Below, one piece after another: positions 14,263 through 63,150 of a stretch of 64,000 nucleotides of DNA (positions are counted from its first letter, which is position 1; each line of letters opens with the position of its first letter). Under the pieces are notes generated by a model. That model saw nothing but the letters and a program-made list of their open reading frames with translations, had not been told where the DNA came from and made no database searches. Made by a program: the position numbers and the translations under genes. Where the stretch lies: assembly GCA_965113315.1 (NCBI GenBank), contig OZ220366.1. One strand, written 5' to 3'. This stretch comes from Podarcis vaucheri (lineage: Eukaryota).

Positions 14263-14738
14263 AGAGACATCACCTTGCCAACAAAGGTCTGTATAGTCAA
14301 AGCTATGGTTTTCCCAGTAGTGATGTATGGAAGTGAGAGCTGGACCATAAAGAAGGCTGATTGCCGAAGAATTGATGCTTTTGAATTATGGTGCTGGAGG
14401 AGACTCTTGAGAGTCCCATGGGCTGCAAGAAGATCAAACCTATCCATTCTTAAGGAAATCAGCCCTGAGTGCTCACTGGAAGGACATATCCTGAAGCTGA
14501 GGCTCCAATACTTTAGCCACCTCATGAGAAGAGAAGACTCCCTGGAAAAGACCCGGATGTTGGGAAAGATGGAGGGCACAAGGAGAAGGGGACGACAGAG
14601 GACGAGATAGTTGGACAGTGTTCTCGAAGCTACCAGCATGAGTTTGACCAAACTGTGAGAGGCAGTGGAAGACAGGAGTGCATGGCGTGCTCTGGTCCAT
14701 GGGGTCACGAAGAGTTGGACACGACTAAACAACAACAA
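14263..14738 (+). mobile_element. BovB (RTE) LINE 3' fragment
   Basis: RDITLPTKV.IVKAMVFPVVMYGSESWTIKKA...RRIDAFELWCWRRLLRVPW; (CAA)n tail. Confidence 0.93.
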
Positions 14739-14759
14739 AAATTATGCAGATATGTATTC

Positions 14760-23409: not shown

Positions 23410-24323
23410 CAGTGGTTTTCAACCAGTGTGCCATGGCACTCTAGGGCGCCTTGAATGATGGTTAGGGGTGCCGCAAGCAACAATGGCCCCTGTCCCTCTC
23501 ACTCTCCTTCCCTCCCTTCCTCTGATGCCCTCTTGCATCTCTGCCTCCCAAAGGTTTGCAGAGCTGCTTGTTGCAGCAGCCCTGGCTACAAGCTTACCAG
23601 GAAAATGGTGCATCTGGGGCTGGCCAGGGGGTACTTCCCAGGCCCCTGTGGAGCAGTGTGGGAAGGCACTTCTCTTGGGGGCAGGGGGAGGGCAGCTCAG
23701 AAACCAGGGGCGGCAGCCGAAAGGACTCTCAGGGAGAGGGGAGAAACACTCCACAAGGGAGGGGGTTCAAAATGGGATTAGGAGCTGCCAGCTCTGCAGA
23801 CAAGGGGTGACATACCGTATTTTTTGCCCTATAGGACGCACTCCCCCCCCAAAAAAAAAAAAATGAAGGGGAAATGTATGTGCATCCTATGGGGCGAATG
23901 CAGGCTTTCGCTGAAGCCCGGAGAGCGAGAGGGGTCGGTGCGCACCGACCCCTCTTGCTCTCCAGGCTTCAGGAGAGCCCCAGCGCCAGCCCCATCCCGC
24001 TGTCTCCCGATGTGGTTTGGAGGCTGACCGCGGGGAGACCCCGCCGCCAGCCCCACAAGCTCCGGGGACAGTGGGGAAGCGCAGCGTGTCTTCCTGCTGT
24101 CCCCGGACCTTGTCTGAAGGCTGGCGGCGGGGAGAAGAGCGCTTCTCCCCGCTGCCGGTCCCACAAGCGCCTGGGGAAAAAAATAATTTCCCCCCCTTTA
24201 TTTCCCCCCAAAAAAACCTGGTGCGTCCTATGGGCCGGTGCGTCCTATGGGGCGAAAAATACCGTAACTGGGCTCCTGAGCTTCACAAGGGAACTGTGGA
24301 CCCAAAAAGGTTGAAAACCTCTG
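23410..24323. mobile_element. hAT non-autonomous element
   Basis: cagtggttttcaacc / ggttgaaaacctctg termini; perfect 8-bp TSD gcataagg. Confidence 0.85.
23815..24264. mobile_element. pogo/Tc2-like MITE nested in the hAT element
   Basis: ccgtattttttgccctataggacgcac / gtgcgtcctatggggcgaaaaataccg TIRs; TA TSD. Confidence 0.8.
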
Positions 24324-24334
24324 GCATAAGGGAT

Positions 24335-24950
24335 AAAATTGAACCCTGAAGGCTGAAAAAGACTCCCCAAGCATCACCCTCTGCGAGTGGTAATCCAAGT
24401 AGGACCGGAACCACAACAAAGTAGTGCCACCAACCCCAAACTCAGAAAGCTGCTCCAGAAGGATACCATGGTTGATGGTATCAAAAGCTGCTGAGTGGTT
24501 GAGGAGAATTAACAGGGATATATTTCCCCTGTCTCTCTCTTGATGAAGGTCATCATACAGGGTGACCAAAGCAGTTTCTGTGCCAAAACCGAGCCTAAAC
24601 CCCAATTGAAATGGATCTTGGAGAATCCGTTTCCTCCGAGAGCACCCAGGTCTGGTCCATAACCACCCACCCAAGAACCTTGCCCAAGAAGGGGAGATGA
24701 GCAACTGGCCAGTAGTTACTTAAGTTTTTTGAGTCCATGGAGGATTTCTTTTCCCCTGCCTCCCTCAAACAGGTAGGAACCACCGCCTCTTTTAAGGAGG
24801 CGTTGATCACCTCCCTGGCCCAGCCAGCTGTCCCCTCCCTGCAAGTTTTTTTCAACCATGAGGGGCAAGAGCGCAAGTGGTTGTCCTAACCAATCGAAGC
24901 ACCTTGTCCACATCCTCAAGCCTTACCAAGTGAAACTCATCCAACACAGC
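24335..24950 (-). mobile_element. L2 LINE reverse transcriptase fragment (frameshifted)
   Basis: DPFQLGFRLGFGTETALV...LLILLNHSAAFDTINHGILL...LLWFRSYL. Confidence 0.85.
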
Positions 24951-24958
24951 AGGACTCT

Positions 24959-25317
24959 GTTCTTGTTGTTTAGTCGTTTAGTCGTGTCCGTCTCTTCATG
25001 GACCAGAGCACGCCAGGCACTCCTGTCTTCCACTGCCTCCCGCAGTTTGGTCAAACTCATGCTGGTAGCTTCGAGAACACTGTCCAACCATTTCGTCCTC
25101 TGTCGTCCCCTTCTCCTTGTGCCCTCCATCTTTCCCAACATCAGGGTCTTTTCCAGGGAGTCTTCTCTTCTCATGAGGTGGCCAAAGTATTGGAGCCTCA
25201 GCTTCAGGATCTGTCCTTCCAGTGAGCACTCAGGGCTGATTTCCTTCAGAATGGATAGGTTTGATCTTCTTGCAGTCCATGGGACTCTCAAGAGTCTCCT
25301 GCAGCACCAGAATTCAA
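24959..25317 (-). mobile_element. BovB LINE 3' fragment
   Basis: RRLLRVPWTARRSNLSILKEISPECSLEGQILKLRLQYFGHLMRREDSLEKTLMLGK. Confidence 0.92.
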
Positions 25318-37253: not shown

Positions 37254-39721
37254 TACCTGGCAAAAAAAGAAAAAAAGAAAAGAAAGAGCATTGTGGGTTT
37301 AGAAGCCACCTCCTTGCTTCTGCTGTTTGGCCCGGTGGGTTTTGGTGCAATGTGGTCATGTGCTGTGTGCTCATTGAAAGCCCAGAATGAATGCAAATGT
37401 GAACATGGAAGAAGTGATCCGTGGGGAAGCCCCTCACGGAAAAGAGTTGATGGCCCAAGCTAGGGGGGATCAGTAGTTCCTGGTTCCCAGAAAGGCAAGA
37501 GAGAGAGACAGAGAGAGGGGCTGCATTATACACACAGTTTATTGAGGGTTACGGGCTTACAATGGGGACGGGTGTGGAAATGAAAAGAGGCAGAGCTTGT
37601 GGTGAGTAAAGGGTAAGTTGTGAATGAGGTAAAAAAGAGCTTTCAAGAGTGAGCAGAAGTGGCAGAGATTACCCATCACAGCAATCCATTTTACTGAGAG
37701 GACATTTCATTAGTTGCAATACAATTGGGGGGGGGGATATAATTTGGGTTACTTTTTGGAAATTGTGAAACATAAGAAGATTTTAATAACCAACCGAAAA
37801 TGTGGTGTTTATAAAATTTACTGTTTGCATTTTGACATTGTTACATATTTGCGACGTGCATGCAGTGCCCCCCCAAATGAATTACCTTACAGGGACTTTG
37901 TTGTTGTTGTTTTTTTCCATTAGAGATGTGTAACACATATGAAAAGTAGAACTGCATATTAGAGGACATTAGCATGCCTGGCGGTGTTTCAGAATAAAAC
38001 ACAGTGCTTCCCTTTAAGGCACAATAGCTCTATTTTTCAAGCGTACAAGTCATTTGATTTTAATCACCAATTCTTTCCATGTAAATGGCTTATGGTGAAG
38101 CAAAAGCAAATGATACAATCTCATATTCTTAATGTGAAATATGGACATGCAGCCTCCCAGAAAGCACTGCCTCTTGAATAAGTTATGACGGTTTAGCAAA
38201 ATCTGAAAATCTGAGTGATATCGAGCATTGTGAAAGCCTGCAGATAAAAGCCCAGTCGTAAAATAAGAGCTACCCATTGAAGCAAAAATAGTATGATTAT
38301 GATTTGTGTGCTTCTTCATTGTTTCCCCCCCATTTTTGTTTCTGGCACGGCACAGCTCTGATTTCCACTTAGAAGCTTCTGCATAACTTCCATCACACAA
38401 ATTGCAGTTTCAGTTGCTTGGAGTCCAATCTTGCCGAGGCGGATTTCATGGGTGCTCCCTTGAATAAGGAAGCTAAATAAAAGAAAGCCATGCTATTTTC
38501 TGTTTTGGAGTGTTACTCATTCTTTACCTTTTGTCCCACAAATTACATCCGTCTCACACGAACAGGGACCTGGTGGCAGTGCCTGTCCTTGCATAAACCT
38601 TTCCTCTGCAATTCCACTTGCTATAAGTTTATTCAAAAAGCCTTCTACTCCCTTACAAGCAGGCGCATAACCAGATTTCTATTAAGCCTGTATCATCCCT
38701 TTGTGTCTCCCAATCTTTTCCCCCTATAAATTATTCCATATATTATGTTGCCATCTGTCCTCCTATCTAATACATTGCCCTGGTTCTGCATGTGTTGCTA
38801 CCACTCTTCCATGAAATGTGATTCCATCTGCCTGCCCCCCCCCCCCCACTCCCTTTCCCTATCAACCATCTTCTCTGGCTAGTATTGCATCTTGATGGAT
38901 AAAATCTACAAGGGGCTGCTGCTTTGTAACTTCCACACAGTTCATTGGGATCTGCACCTGATTCCCTTGGAAACCCTATTAAAACGAAGTGAGCTTGCAG
39001 AGGAGCAATGCCTGGTGACTTGCACCCTGCCATTTCCATATGACTCAATTATATTTGGTTGACATGAAATGGGAGACAAATGAGTGTCGCCAAAATAGCA
39101 AAGGGTAACAAAATAACCTGGTGCCTAGAGGAATCTTTCCTCTGTTGAATTTTTCATGTTGTCCTCTTTCAAATCTGTTTTCAGCTTGTTCTGGTTTGTC
39201 AGCTGTCTGAGCTTTTCTTATTCTTCTTCTTCTTCCTCCTTCTCCCCCCCCCCCATTCCTCCCAGGTCACTGTTAATGTAGCTTGACTCCCCCCCCCACT
39301 CCTTTCTCAAAGGTAGCACTTGAAAAGAGAGCAGGTGGTTTTTTAGAGAAATAGGCAAGTGACACAGGTTGACAAGCTACAGCAAAGCAGGTCACGACAA
39401 AGTAGTTTGGAAATTGGATTGCAGGAGGTAGAAAATTGAGTCCTGCCTTAGAGGGGCCAGGATCTTGCACGAAATGCACCAGAATTGAACAAGTCACAGT
39501 TGGGTTGCTGGGGCAGTAAGAAATGACCTACATCGTGGGAACACATTGGTGGAGAGGCAGGGAGGAGTGAGTGGGTTTGCCATTCATTCTCGGTTTGTTT
39601 CATCCTCCTGCTGTGTTATCAAAACAATCACGATCTTCTTAGAATAATTTAGACAAATTGGGTTGTGGATGTCCCAGGCAGTGATCGCTTATGTGTGTGC
39701 ATAGATGTGTCCATATACATT

Positions 39722-40158
39722 GTTGTTGTTTAGTCGTTTAGTCGTGTCTGACTCTTTCTGACCCCATGGACCAGAGCACGCCAGGCACTTCTGCCTTCCA
39801 CTGCCTCCCGCAGTTTAGTCAAACTCATGCTGGTAGCTTCGAGAACACTGTCCGACCATCTCGTCCTCTGTCGTCCCCTTCTCCTTGTGCCCTCCATCTT
39901 TCCCAACATCCGGGTCTTTTCCAGGGAGTCTTCTCTTCTCATGAGGTGGCCAAAGTATTGGAGTCTCAGCTTCAGGATCTGTCCTTCCAGATCCTTAAGA
40001 ATGGATCGGTTTGATCTTCTTGCAGTCCATGGGACTCTCAAGAGTCTCCTCCAGCACCATAATTCAAAAGCATCAATTCTTCGGCGATCAGCCTTCTTTA
40101 TGGTCCAGCTCTCACTTCCATACATCACTACTGGGAAAACCATAGCTTTAACTATACG
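39722..40158 (-). mobile_element. BovB LINE 3' fragment
   Basis: BovB ORF end with a small internal deletion; TSD gtccatatacatt. Confidence 0.93.
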
Positions 40159-40799
40159 GTCCATATACATTAGACAGGTATAATGTCTCCTCTTCATTGC
40201 ACAGCCACAGAAGAGGGGGTTTTGCAGTTACCTTATTGAGTTCCACAGCGTTATCTCTGGCTCACAATGGGCAGCATCTTGCAGACCAAAGATAGGGAAT
40301 CTATGGTTCTGCAGCTGCTATCAACTCAGACCAGTGGCCTTGCTGGCAGGGGTGATAGGAATTGTAGTTCGGCAACACCTAGAGGGCCAAAGGTTCCCCA
40401 CACTTCCTGTAGATCAAGGATAGGGAACCTACGGCCCTCCATATGTTGTTGGATCATGGCTCCTGTCAACTCTGATCATTGGGCACGCTGGCTGGGAGTT
40501 GATGGGAGTTGGAGTCCAGCAATATTTGCACGGTTACAAATTGTGACAACATTGCTCTGTTCAGAGGACAAATCTATGTCTTATTTCTATGTAGCGGAAA
40601 CTGAGTCCGGCAGTTAAGTTTTGCACCTTTGTTCCCTCAGCAACGACTGCCAATTCGGGATGGGAATTTAGTGTTCAGGGATGAGTCTTCGGGCATATAG
40701 CATATACATTTCCTTTACTTAACTTAAAAGTAACTTAAGCATTACAAAAAGAAGATAAATAAGGTGAATAACACAAAAACCTTATAAAATGCTAGTATT

Positions 40800-41317
40800 G
40801 TTGTTGTTGTTTAGTTGTTTAGTTGTGTCAGACTCTTCGTGACCCCATGACCAGAGCACGCCAGGCACTCCTGTCTCCCACTGCCTCCCGCAGTTTGGTC
40901 AAACTCATGTTAGTAGCTTCGAGAACACTGTCCAACAATCTCGTCCTCTGTCGTCCCCTTCTCCTTGTGCCCTCCATCTTTCCCAACATCCGGGTCTTTT
41001 CCAGGGAATCTTCTGTTCTCATGAGGTGGCCAAAGTATTGGAGCCTCAGCTTCAGGATCTGTCCTTCCAGTGAGCACTCAGGGCTGATTTCCTTCAGAAT
41101 GGAGAGGTTTGATCTTCTTGCAGTCCATGGGACTCTCGAGAGTCTCCTCCAGCAGCATAATTCAAAAGCATCAATTCTTCGGCGATCAGCCTTCTTTATG
41201 GTCCAGCTCTCACTTCCGTACATCACTACTGGGAAAACCATAGCTTTAGCTATATGGACCTTTATTGGCAAGGTGATGTCTCTGCTTTTTAAGCTGCTGT
41301 CTAGATTTGTCATTGCT
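40800..41317 (-). mobile_element. BovB LINE 3' fragment
   Basis: AMTNLDSSLKSRDITLP...; TSD aatgctagtatt. Confidence 0.93.

Positions 41318-60243: not shown

Positions 60244-60290
<47 letters not shown>
60244..60290. repeat. (AC)12(AT)n microsatellite, left flank of the PLE cluster
   Basis: Read directly. Confidence 0.95.
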
Positions 60291-60291
<1 letters not shown>

Positions 60292-60403
60292 GCAGGTTTT
60301 GGTGTCTTCGGGTGTCTTCCCGTGTAAGAGTCGGGGTGTCTGGGCGACGTTTCGACGAGGTCTCACTCGTCATCTTCAGGCTGGTGCTTTCGGCTTCTTG
60401 TTA
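60291..60403 (-). mobile_element. PLE pLTR 3' segment, without the 29-nt tail, attached to the long MRPS9 arm
   Basis: Reverse complement of taacaagaag...aaaacctgca, matching 62081-62193; abuts (AT)n. Confidence 0.88.
60344..60381 (-). ncRNA. Minimal type I hammerhead ribozyme motif (PLE), copy a
   Basis: On the - strand: CUGAAGA-U-GACGAG(UGAGAC)CUCGUC-GAAA-C-GUC. 6-bp stem II, palindromic ACGU stem III, stem I only about 2 bp. Confidence 0.75.
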
Positions 60404-60847
60404 ATGCATTACAGAATAATAGGACTGCTTGCCAGTGTAAAAGAGAAAGTGAAATGGGCGGCCATCTTTGTCCCACTGGATTGCTCTTTGCTTTGGAAAC
60501 ATTTCTTCGGGATGCTTCATTACAGGTCTGGCCCTTTTGTCAAACAGACCAGAAGGAAAGAGATAGGCAATAGCTTTATCAATATCCTCTTGGGTAAAAG
60601 TTTCTGGATCTTCTCCCATCATGTTGGCTAAATGTCTCTTTCCTATGTTGAAATCTTCAGTCTGTTTTTTGATAAAAGCTTCTGTGTACTTTTCAGGTCC
60701 TGAAGCAGCAACATTTTTCCTCTGCACTGTTGTGGTAGTGCAGATCAGTCTTAATGTCTTCGGCCCCGCCAACCGCTTCCCCGTCCTCACCGCCCCGCTC
60801 CACGCATGGCTCCCGAGCAGCAAGCGCCCAACCGCCGCCACTACCAT
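60404..60847 (-). pseudogene. MRPS9: Processed (intronless) 5' retrocopy of MRPS9, codons 1-148, fused to a PLE pLTR
   Basis: ATG at 60847-60845, then an uninterrupted frame [10 protein letters not shown]...[83 protein letters not shown], which is the N-terminal part of mitochondrial ribosomal protein S9. No introns. The stop TAA (60403-60401) is supplied by the PLE. Confidence 0.95.
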
Positions 60848-60848
60848 A

Positions 60849-60989
60849 TTTGACAAAAGGGCCAGACCTGTAATGAAGCATCCCGAAGAAATGTTTCCAA
60901 AGCAAAGAGCAATCCAGTGGGACAAAGATGGCCGCCCATTTCACTTTCTCTTTTACACTGGCAAGCAGTCCTATTATTCTGTAATGCAT
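60849..60989 (+). pseudogene. MRPS9: Second, inverted, 5'-truncated MRPS9 retrocopy arm (last 47 codons of the fragment)
   Basis: [11 protein letters not shown]...SYYSVMH; exact reverse complement of 60404-60544; followed by the same pLTR junction. Confidence 0.95.
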
Positions 60990-61131
60990 TAACAAGAAGC
61001 CGAAAGCACCAGCCTGAAGATGACGAGTGAGACCTCGTCGAAACGTCGCCCAGACACCCCGACTCTTACACGGGAAGACACCCGAAGACACCAAAACCTG
61101 CATTCCTGTACCCGTGAAAATCTACGAAAGC
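60990..61131 (+). mobile_element. PLE pLTR 3' segment with tail, attached to the short MRPS9 arm
   Basis: taacaagaag...hammerhead...acctgca plus the 29-nt tail ttcctgtacccgtgaaaatctacgaaagc; followed by (AT)9. Confidence 0.88.
61012..61049 (+). ncRNA. Minimal hammerhead ribozyme motif, copy b
   Basis: CUGAAGA at 61014, stem II GACGAG/CUCGUC, GAAACGUC; predicted cleavage after 61047. Confidence 0.75.
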
Positions 61132-61189
<58 letters not shown>

Positions 61190-61191
61190 GT
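61132..61191. repeat. (AT)9(GT)13(AT)7GT microsatellite between two PLE 3' ends
   Basis: Read directly. Confidence 0.95.
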
Positions 61192-61488
61192 GCTTTCGTA
61201 GATTTTCACGGGTACAGGAATGCAGGTTTTGGTGTCTTCGGGTGTCTTCCCGTGTAAGAGTCGGGGTGTCTGGGCGACGTTTCGACGAGGTCTCACTCGT
61301 CATCTTCAGGCTGGTGCTTTCGGCTTCTTGTTACTGGAACAGAGCAGAATCTGGTGTTTGAGTTCCTATAAATACTGTTGAGGGGTGTGGTGTATAGCCT
61401 CCAACGTTCTAGGCAGAGAGGAAGTTCCTAGATTAGTGTGCCTTTTCTTCTTTTGTTCCTTAATTACTTGAGGGATATCTTGAGTGAT
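61192..61488 (-). mobile_element. Inverted PLE pLTR/3' UTR with tail
   Basis: Reverse complement of the element's 3' end. Joins the + strand copy at 61487 through a 2-nt AT microhomology. An inverted 5' pLTR is a known PLE insertion form. Confidence 0.88.
61274..61311 (-). ncRNA. Minimal hammerhead ribozyme motif, copy c
   Basis: Same motif on the - strand inside the inverted pLTR (core 61276-61309). Confidence 0.75.
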
Positions 61489-62039
61489 CGAGATAGAGAA
61501 ACACCCTCACAACATGAACAAGCGTGACGACACGTCCCGCCTGCCAGACATCTGGAAATTAGCCCTCCCCACAAAAACCGACACCAGAACCAGAGGCACA
61601 CAGAACGCCGTCACCAATCAACCACACCAGACCCAAACCCAGACCCTCTCCACAGACATATTACAGACTCCATCCAGTAGCCAAACTATAGTGGCACCTC
61701 CGGATGCTGCACCCCCCTGCAATCCCTACACAGATCTGGCTGGCACAAGGCACAAAATCACAGCTCGCCCCTATACACGAAGCCAAGCCAGAGCACAACT
61801 AAATGCAGCACAGCCATCTTCTCAAAAAAACTCTTCACAAGCTCAAGAGGTCAAGACACGAAAGCTTTAGCAACTAATCTACACTTAATGACCCACCCAG
61901 TGGTATTCAGAATATCACTCATGAAATCACTCAAGATATCCCTCAAGTAATTAAGGAACAAAAGAAGAAAAGGCACACTAATCTAGGAACTTCCTCTCTG
62001 CCCAGAACGTTGGAGGCTATACACCACACCCCTCAACAG

Positions 62040-62047
62040 TATTTATA
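62040..62047. promoter_or_regulatory. TATA-like element in the pLTR (TATTTATA sense, TATAAATA antisense); also 62916-62923 and 61367-61374
   Basis: Motif only, about 65 nt upstream of the hammerhead core. pLTRs are known to act as PLE promoters. Confidence 0.35.
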
Positions 62048-62060
62048 GGAACTCAAACAC

Positions 62061-62080
62061 CAGATTCTGCTCTGTTCCAG
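62061..62080 (+). promoter_or_regulatory. Splice-acceptor-like site in the PLE pLTR (also AG at 62955-62956 on + and 61335-61334 on -)
   Basis: cagattctgctctgttccag|taacaag; the MRPS9 junction falls exactly after this AG. Confidence 0.7.
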
Positions 62081-62102
62081 TAACAAGAAGCCGAAAGCAC
62101 CA

Positions 62103-62140
62103 GCCTGAAGATGACGAGTGAGACCTCGTCGAAACGTCGC
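62103..62140 (+). ncRNA. Minimal hammerhead ribozyme motif, copy d
   Basis: Core 62105-62138; predicted cleavage after 62138. Confidence 0.75.
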
Positions 62141-62200
62141 CCAGACACCCCGACTCTTACACGGGAAGACACCCGAAGACACCAAAACCTGCATATATAT

Positions 62201-63096
62201 ATAAATGCACGTATCGCAGAACACAAGAATGCCGTCAAAAAAGAAGAAAAAACTTCCTCTCTTTTCCAACACATGAAAGAAACAGGACACGAAATTAATT
62301 TTGCAGATTCCAAATTGCTCTTTAACATGGAACATCACCACAAGAGAATAATCATGGAAGCCATCGAGATAGAGAAACACCCTCACAACATGAACAAGCG
62401 TGACGACACGTCCCGCCTGCCAGACATCTGGAAATTAGCCCTCCCCACAAAAACCGACACCAGAACCATAGGCACACAGAACGCCGTCACCAATCAACCA
62501 CACCAGACCCAAACCCAGACCCTCTCCACAGACATATTACAGACTCCATCCAGTAGCCAAACTATAGTGGCACCTCCGGATGCTGCACCCCCCTGCAATC
62601 CCTACACAGATCTGGCTGGCACAAGGCACAAAACCACAGCTCGCCCCTATACACGAAGCCAAGCCAGAGCACAACTAAATGCAGCACAGCCATCTTCTCA
62701 GAAAAACTCTTCACAAGCTCAAGAGGTCAAGACACGAAAGCTTTAGCAACTAATCTACACTTAATGACCCACCCAGTGGTATTCAGAATATCACTCATGA
62801 AATCACCCAAGATATCCCTCAAGTAATTAAGGAACAAAAGAAGAAAAGGCACACTAATCTAGGAACTTCCTCTCTGCCCAGAACGTTGGAGGCTATACAC
62901 CACACCCCTCAACAGTATTTATAGGAACTCAAACACCAGACTCTGCTCTGTTCCAGTAACAAGAAGCCGAAAGCACCAGCCTGAAGATGACGAGTGAGAC
63001 CTCGTCGAAACGTCGCACAGACACCCCGACTCTTACACGGGAAGACACCCGAAGACACCAAAACCTGCATTCCTGTACCCGTGAAAATCTACGAAA

Positions 63097-63098
<2 letters not shown>
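62201..63098 (+). mobile_element. 5'-truncated Penelope/Poseidon-type PLE, copy 2 (C-terminal half of GIY-YIG endonuclease, pLTR and tail)
   Basis: INARIAEHKNAVKKEEKTSSLFQHMKETGHEINF...KRIIMEAIEIEKHPHNMN fits the R..EH / H..GH / E.IEI / N pattern of PLE GIY-YIG domains. Stop at 62744-62746. About six substitutions versus copy 1. Followed by (AT)26. Confidence 0.9.
62979..63016 (+). ncRNA. Minimal hammerhead ribozyme motif, copy e
   Basis: Core 62981-63014; predicted cleavage after 63014. Confidence 0.75.

Positions 63099-63150
<52 letters not shown>
63099..63150. repeat. (AT)26 microsatellite, right flank of the PLE cluster
   Basis: Read directly. Confidence 0.95.

Follow-up and report, generated by a model that had tools for sequence, protein, structure and literature searches.

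Two inverted element arms in Podarcis vaucheri share a likely splice junction between MRPS9 exons and a Penelope-like element

Results

Anatomy of the element cluster

The window is the whole stretch of Podarcis vaucheri DNA that was analyzed, 64,000 nucleotides in length (assembly GCA_965113315.1, contig OZ220366.1). Near its end, at 60244-63150, five young element fragments lie within one compound microsatellite. These fragments are referred to as arms 1 to 5, and the first two carry a passenger from the gene MRPS9.

60244-60291, no strand: left target microsatellite, (AC)12(AT)12; its last bases are common to the arm end
60291-60403, minus strand: element part of arm 1, 113 nt, from the putative acceptor to the tail-less reverse transcription (RT) start, 83 nt into the element ORF
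60404-60847, minus strand: passenger of arm 1, MRPS9 codons 1-148, 444 nt, intron-less and in open frame
60848, no strand: single A at the head-to-head joint between arms 1 and 2, which may be either the -1 base of the MRPS9 5' UTR or an untemplated addition
60849-60989, plus strand: passenger of arm 2, MRPS9 codons 102-148, 141 nt
60990-61102, plus strand: element part of arm 2, the same 113 nt, from the putative splice junction
61103-61132, plus strand: tail of arm 2, 30 nt, ending 113 nt into the element ORF at the second RT start
61132-61189, no strand: spacer microsatellite, (AT)9(GT)13(AT)7, whose first 44 nt mirror the left flank
61191-61488, minus strand: arm 3, a plain, tailed element end of 298 nt with the native pyrimidine tract and CAG
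61487-62193, plus strand: arm 4, a plain, tail-less element end of 707 nt; its putative native acceptor ends at 62080
62201-63099, plus strand: arm 5, a separate 5'-truncated, tailed copy that encodes the end of the GIY-YIG domain, followed by (AT)26; its putative native acceptor ends at 62956

Arms 1 and 2 match without a mismatch across 255 nt (60290-60544 versus 60849-61103), so that the junction between MRPS9 and the element is shared to the base. The initial annotation had described a tail-less left arm in which 444 nt of MRPS9 reach the ATG, a tailed right arm with 141 nt of MRPS9, a head-to-head meeting with one intervening A and a junction common to both arms, and each of these points was confirmed. 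The content that is exclusive to each arm can also be read directly: arm 1 (557 nt, tail-less) has an additional 303 nt of MRPS9, and arm 2 (284 nt, tailed) has the 30-nt tail. Because each arm has sequence that is absent from the other, neither is a plain copy of its partner, and a simple inverted duplication was rejected. A fold-back read, an assembly artefact or a late DNA-level inverted duplication would produce the perfect 255-nt inverted identity along with a mirrored microsatellite, but a mirror cannot add a tail that matches three other positions in the cluster, and the mirrored stretch ends before the unique flank. An origin of this kind is hardly credible.

The microsatellites that flank the chimeric pair, (AC)12(AT)12 at 60244-60291 and (AT)9(GT)13 at 61132-61175, are mirror images, and represent either a pre-existing palindromic microsatellite or the trace of a copy-back. 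A transcript across 60290-61103 would fold as a perfect 255-bp hairpin that includes 141 bp of MRPS9 coding sequence; as a speculation, the parent gene might then be targeted by small RNAs that arise from this hairpin.

A second head-to-head pair is made up of arms 3 and 4, which differ at 1 of 269 nt and overlap by AT at 61487-61488. The initial annotation had assigned this pair the same layout as the first; the head-to-head arrangement and the 2-nt AT overlap stand, but the order is mirrored, with the tailed arm on the left. In both pairs, the 30-nt tail is found on one arm only and the tail-less arm is the longer (557 versus 284 nt and 707 versus 298 nt), a pattern that, across these two pairs, fits one RNA copied from two starts. 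Arm 5 differs from arm 4 at 6 of 708 positions. At all three of the sites compared, arms 3 and 4 share bases against arm 5, but these bases may be the majority state of the family and so are not proof of a common template.

The remainder of the window yielded no convincing host gene among 41 ORFs of at least 110 aa at 1-60200 (Pfam), a search that short exons would escape. An RT fragment of another retroelement is located at 24231-24719 on the minus strand (RVT_1, E 2e-5), and other dispersed repeats are located at 14263-14740, 24960-25317 and 39720-41283.

The passenger is a processed part of MRPS9

A protein search identified the passenger as MRPS9 (E 3.6e-62 to mammalian uS9m). Counted from the annotated start, it equals the Podarcis raffonei protein at 146 of 148 residues, with V9L and R14H as the two amino-acid differences. 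In arm 1, the passenger starts at the ATG used as the start by the Podarcis, Lacerta and Zootoca models, and an element-derived TAA directly follows codon 148. In arm 2, the passenger start falls between two isoform breakpoints (residues 90 and 111, see below), and not at an exon edge. Two observations fall within the region that the passenger covers: residue 30/31 is the point of divergence of a Podarcis isoform, and a genomic fragment reads out of the MRPS9 gene after residue 90. Lacertid introns are thus indicated after residues 30 and 90 and, as both are absent here, the passenger is processed. The parent MRPS9 gene was not found within the 64-kb window, from which residues 149-382 are also absent. 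Since the chimeric product is without the C-terminal S9 domain, it is probably inert.

Further copies of the fusion were sought in several collections. In a search of indexed sequencing runs (24 rows), the best word share, 0.80, was no higher than that predicted for ordinary MRPS9 mRNA (0.80). Two genome-sized contig sets gave word shares of 0.74 and 0.72, versus the 0.51-0.60 expected for exons only, an expectation that rests partly on one assumed exon end; these values could reflect a processed copy and are not counted as evidence. A protein search with the 47-aa sequence of the right arm returned no candidate for short exon fragments. Neither the MRPS9 exon motif nor the element end had a match in metagenome scans, and one viral scan likewise gave 0 matches. 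No protein cluster member has an N-terminal extension that would show the bases before the MRPS9 ATG.

These searches bear on the possibility that the spliced fusion was first fixed elsewhere as DNA, for example as a small non-autonomous MRPS9-headed subfamily comparable to SVA_F1, and was then copied here from a template of any polarity. The spliced template would in that case belong to an earlier event. Such a history would account for two amino-acid changes in the GC-rich first exon versus 0 differences between the arms, and exon-headed SVA subfamilies are known to have expanded (PMC6139936). Against it, the window holds no other chimeric copy, no indexed run rises above the 0.80 word share expected for plain mRNA, and both amino-acid changes lie outside the duplicated part and therefore date nothing. 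Copying from an already fixed DNA source is considered distinctly unlikely.

The chimeric junction has the features of a splice junction

To locate exon boundaries, 68 MRPS9 homologues were aligned to the Podarcis protein, and a breakpoint was defined as a gap of at least 7 residues that begins or ends exactly at a given position. The commonest breakpoint is codon 148, the last codon of the passenger in both arms, which is a gap edge in 10 of the 68 homologues; the others are at residues 111 (9 proteins), 177 (4), 203 (3) and 90 (2). One further homologue model enters intron-like sequence right after residue 148. A pile-up of breakpoints is what would be expected from exon-skipping isoform models, and residue 148 is thus likely a conserved exon end, with the boundary taken from bird, turtle and caecilian models and extended to lizards by conservation. 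Human MRPS9 presumably has the same exon boundary, at c.489, for which a literature search retrieved no paper.

On the element side, a pyrimidine tract and CAG immediately precede the junction position in all three plain copies of the window, an acceptor-like sequence that is observed directly. The tract has 11 pyrimidines in 13 positions and, by pyrimidine count, ranks second of 67 AG sites in 896 nt. A slightly more pyrimidine-rich AG is located 75 nt upstream and is unused, which is counted against a splice reading. The two parents, MRPS9 and the element, share no bases at the junction. A rough estimate, which assumes 10 exon ends, places the joint chance of the exon-end and acceptor coincidences at about 2e-5. 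Because a likely exon end at residue 148 and an acceptor-like pyrimidine-CAG sequence coincide at this position, the junction most likely represents MRPS9 exons spliced to an element acceptor 30 nt before the ATG and hammerhead-like motif. A splice junction would also explain why the junction recurs to the base in both arms. The pre-formed chimeric RNA that the initial annotation had proposed is supported, although the splice-like character of the junction had escaped notice.

The acceptor may be one that the element uses natively. In Drosophila virilis Penelope, the 5' UTR contains a native intron whose end coincides with the 5' edge of the hammerhead (PMC4209133), and by analogy the P. vaucheri element may use the same acceptor for its own intron. 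The best upstream donor match (7 of 9) is at 62823, and the candidate intron would be 134 nt. In the plain copies, a TATA-like sequence, TATTTATA, is found at 62916-62923, about 40 nt upstream of the acceptor, and is a possible pLTR promoter. In P0079 and P0085, the ORF extends across the pLTR to a stop within the hammerhead-like motif (final residues QPEDDE), and the acceptor therefore lies in the coding sequence of this long form.

Without splicing, the junction could have been made by an RT template switch or by RNA ligation between an element RNA 5' end and an MRPS9 RNA broken at an exon end. Native transcripts may start near the junction, as the TATA-like motif about 40 nt upstream would allow. 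However, such an event must by chance coincide with an exon end on one side and with the first base behind CAG on the other, and a junction made by RT would require this twice, which renders it very improbable. The junction is also 58 nt upstream of the predicted hammerhead cut, so that a 5' end made by the ribozyme provides no explanation; ligation of ribozyme-cut RNA was rejected because of this position. An L1 processed pseudogene was likewise rejected, as there is no poly(A) and no 3' part of the mRNA, and both arms end in the element and then in (AT)n.

The element resembles Poseidon

The window contains only the C-terminal part of the element protein, which is 93% identical over 173 aa to P0080 from Podarcis muralis. 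P0080 carries RVT_1 (E 4e-16) and, below the curated cut-off, GIY-YIG (E 0.001). Upon inspection, the CX2-5CxxC linker upstream of GIY-YIG is absent in P0079 and P0080; PMC8557442 gives this cysteine linker as a criterion for Neptune/Nematis versus the Penelope/Poseidon clade. Compared with P0079 and P0080, the low-complexity region after GIY-YIG contains a one-base frameshift that is common to arms 4 and 5 (61840-61870 and 62716-62746). In addition, a snake model named olfactory receptor 10A7-like (P0084) contains a stretch 74% identical to the endonuclease end of the element, and is either wrongly annotated or a further example of host sequence fused to a Penelope-like element (PLE).

A hammerhead-like motif was recognized in arm 2 by inspection and folding. 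Its core begins at 61014 and comprises CUGANGA, a bulged base, a 6-bp helix II, GAAAC-GUC and a 2-bp helix I, with a predicted cut after 61047. A minimal hammerhead motif of this make-up has been described (PMC4209133). Rfam returned no hammerhead among 27 matches, only hairpin and microsatellite matches below the gathering score, and the folding z-scores of the element ends are modest (-1.1 to -2.0). The element ATG, at 61020, is located at helix II of this motif, as in Poseidon of Anolis, where the ORF begins at stem II of the hammerhead (PMC11167929). The two RT starts are at +83 (tail-less) and +113 (tailed) of the element ORF, 30 nt apart, and the tailed start of Poseidon_Ac is at +111 to +118 (PMC11167929). 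Both start sites, 61097-61102 and 61127-61132, end in GCA and are followed by the TA run of the target, which suggests 1-2 nt of pairing with an (AT)n primer. By the absence of the linker and the positions of the ATG and RT starts, the element resembles an EN+ Penelope-like element of the Poseidon type.

The insertions described for Poseidon_Ac and for Penelope-Poseidon elements (PMC11167929, PMC8557442, PMC3846280) share with the present locus a parent-family ORF with RT and C-terminal GIY-YIG; their pLTR holds a minimal hammerhead motif, which the hammerhead-like motif of arm 2 resembles. As in the Poseidon_Ac insertions, the ATG is at helix II, two RT starts bound a 30-nt tail and the target is AT-rich. 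An adjacent inverted, 5'-truncated copy with a tail on one side only is typical of Penelope-like elements (PMC8557442) and is found here as well. The two-ended layout is thus itself standard for the class. In contrast to the Penelope/Poseidon insertions, both arms here run upstream into spliced host mRNA and not into element sequence.

Origin of the two arms

According to PMC11167929, the Poseidon protein of Anolis cuts and extends both strands of AT-rich DNA in vitro, initiates cDNA synthesis internally on the RNA, at two positions that delimit the tail, and uses uncut RNA as its main template. The two arms are probably two reverse transcripts of a spliced, sense-oriented MRPS9-Penelope fusion RNA, each presumably primed from one side of a cut (AT)n target, that were joined head to head. 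The sequence of events would begin with a sense-oriented Poseidon-like copy located within, or behind, the intron predicted to follow codon 148 of MRPS9, and the donor of the MRPS9 exon would be spliced to the pyrimidine-CAG acceptor of the element, 30 nt upstream of its ATG. The element protein, acting in trans, would bind the ORF start, cut both strands of the AT-rich DNA and initiate RT internally on the RNA, at one or the other of two positions separated by 30 nt, as the Anolis protein does in vitro. At the left DNA end, copying from the upstream site would proceed to the MRPS9 start codon (557 nt); at the right DNA end, copying would start from the downstream site (284 nt). Both copies would read through the uncut hammerhead motif, and the two cDNA 3' ends would be joined with little or no homology.

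Two RT events from opposite ends of the target, as the initial annotation had proposed, remain the simplest reading because each arm has sequence that the other lacks, but they are deduced from one locus, and their ingredients were already known (PMC11167929). Counted against this reading is the microsatellite that follows arm 2, 44 nt of which are a mirror image of the left flank, as would result from copy-back through the flank. A single tailed cDNA could have extended to the MRPS9 start and then, after folding back, served as its own template through the tail and into the left flank; the first arm would have lost its tail later, during resolution. The 44-nt mirror, (AT)9(GT)13, and the lack of mismatches between the arms agree with this course of events. 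A homology of 1-3 nt with the MRPS9 5' UTR may also be hidden at the joint. Compound AT/GT microsatellites are, however, common, there is no palindrome at either joint, and the second pair is without a mirrored flank. Moreover, the tail that was lost would need to be exactly 30 nt, removed at the same base where arm 4 independently ends. The literature offers points on both sides, as endonuclease-mediated resolution has been invoked for the tail (PMC8557442) and self-priming for inverted joints (PMC3846280), whereas two RT starts already account for the tail in vitro (PMC11167929). Formation of the pair from one self-copied cDNA is judged rather unlikely, and it leaves the splice origin of the junction unchanged.

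For the favored reading, two reverse transcripts of a fusion RNA, a more tentative extension with two parts can be put forward. A Penelope RT dimer may copy the same RNA twice, with the leading enzyme using the upstream, tail-less start and the trailing enzyme using the downstream, tailed start and displacing the first cDNA, which would explain both the one-sided tails and the shorter tailed arm in the two pairs here. The acceptor before the hammerhead may, in turn, be a general exon trap, and squamate genomes may hold unrecognized hairpin-shaped retrocopies, poly(A)-less and with 5' exons, made by Penelope and not by L1. This combined proposal is possible, but doubtful.

Discussion

In L1 twin priming, cDNAs primed from the two target strands are likewise joined head to head, but they copy two adjacent, essentially non-overlapping parts of one RNA. 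In contrast, the arms described here overlap by 255 nt and their starts are 30 nt apart. A closer parallel for the junction is exon trapping by SVA elements (SVA_F1-MAST2 and pt_SVA_D6-STK40; PMC6139936), where one or more 5' host exons, delimited by the 3' boundary of an exon, are fused to an acceptor in the element end and retrotransposed. The P. vaucheri locus differs from SVA in that poly(A) is absent, RT starts internally, the two inverted arms overlap and several exons are involved; within the window, there is also no sign of expansion into a subfamily.

Transport of host genes by PLEs is known with introns retained (PMC3846280, PMC6431247). In Adineta vaga, mobilization of an NRPS gene between pLTRs (PMC3846280) resembles the present case in that host sequence was moved in trans by the cis signals of the pLTR and in the presence of an inverted pLTR. 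It differs in that the introns were kept and the cargo lay between two direct pLTRs, whereas the cargo here is spliced and has no upstream pLTR. The head-to-head layout, the one-sided tail, the two RT starts and both-strand priming are thus already known for PLEs, and splice capture is known for SVA. Apparently new is the cargo route, the probable capture of host exons by splicing to a Penelope element. Among the papers listed in literature searches, which covered mostly open texts, and in a 2026 retrozyme preprint, no report of splice-mediated exon capture by a PLE was found.

For head-to-head Penelope structures, Arkhipova et al. in 2013 favored self-priming with an antisense template, considered an unspliced sense transcript as another possibility, and did not decide between the two (PMC3846280). 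The spliced sense passenger fits neither proposal, at least for the event that first fixed the passenger. As both arms carry spliced exons, the template goes back to a sense RNA that had been spliced, in agreement with the in vitro model of 2024. The host exons thereby serve as a natural barcode from which the polarity of the template can be read. A fusion RNA of this kind should be rare among the transcripts of the family, and that both arms carry it suggests that each event draws on one RNA or one source. Finally, the locus points to a route by which Penelope elements can generate poly(A)-less, processed partial retrocopies; standard pseudogene scans would overlook these or attribute them to L1.
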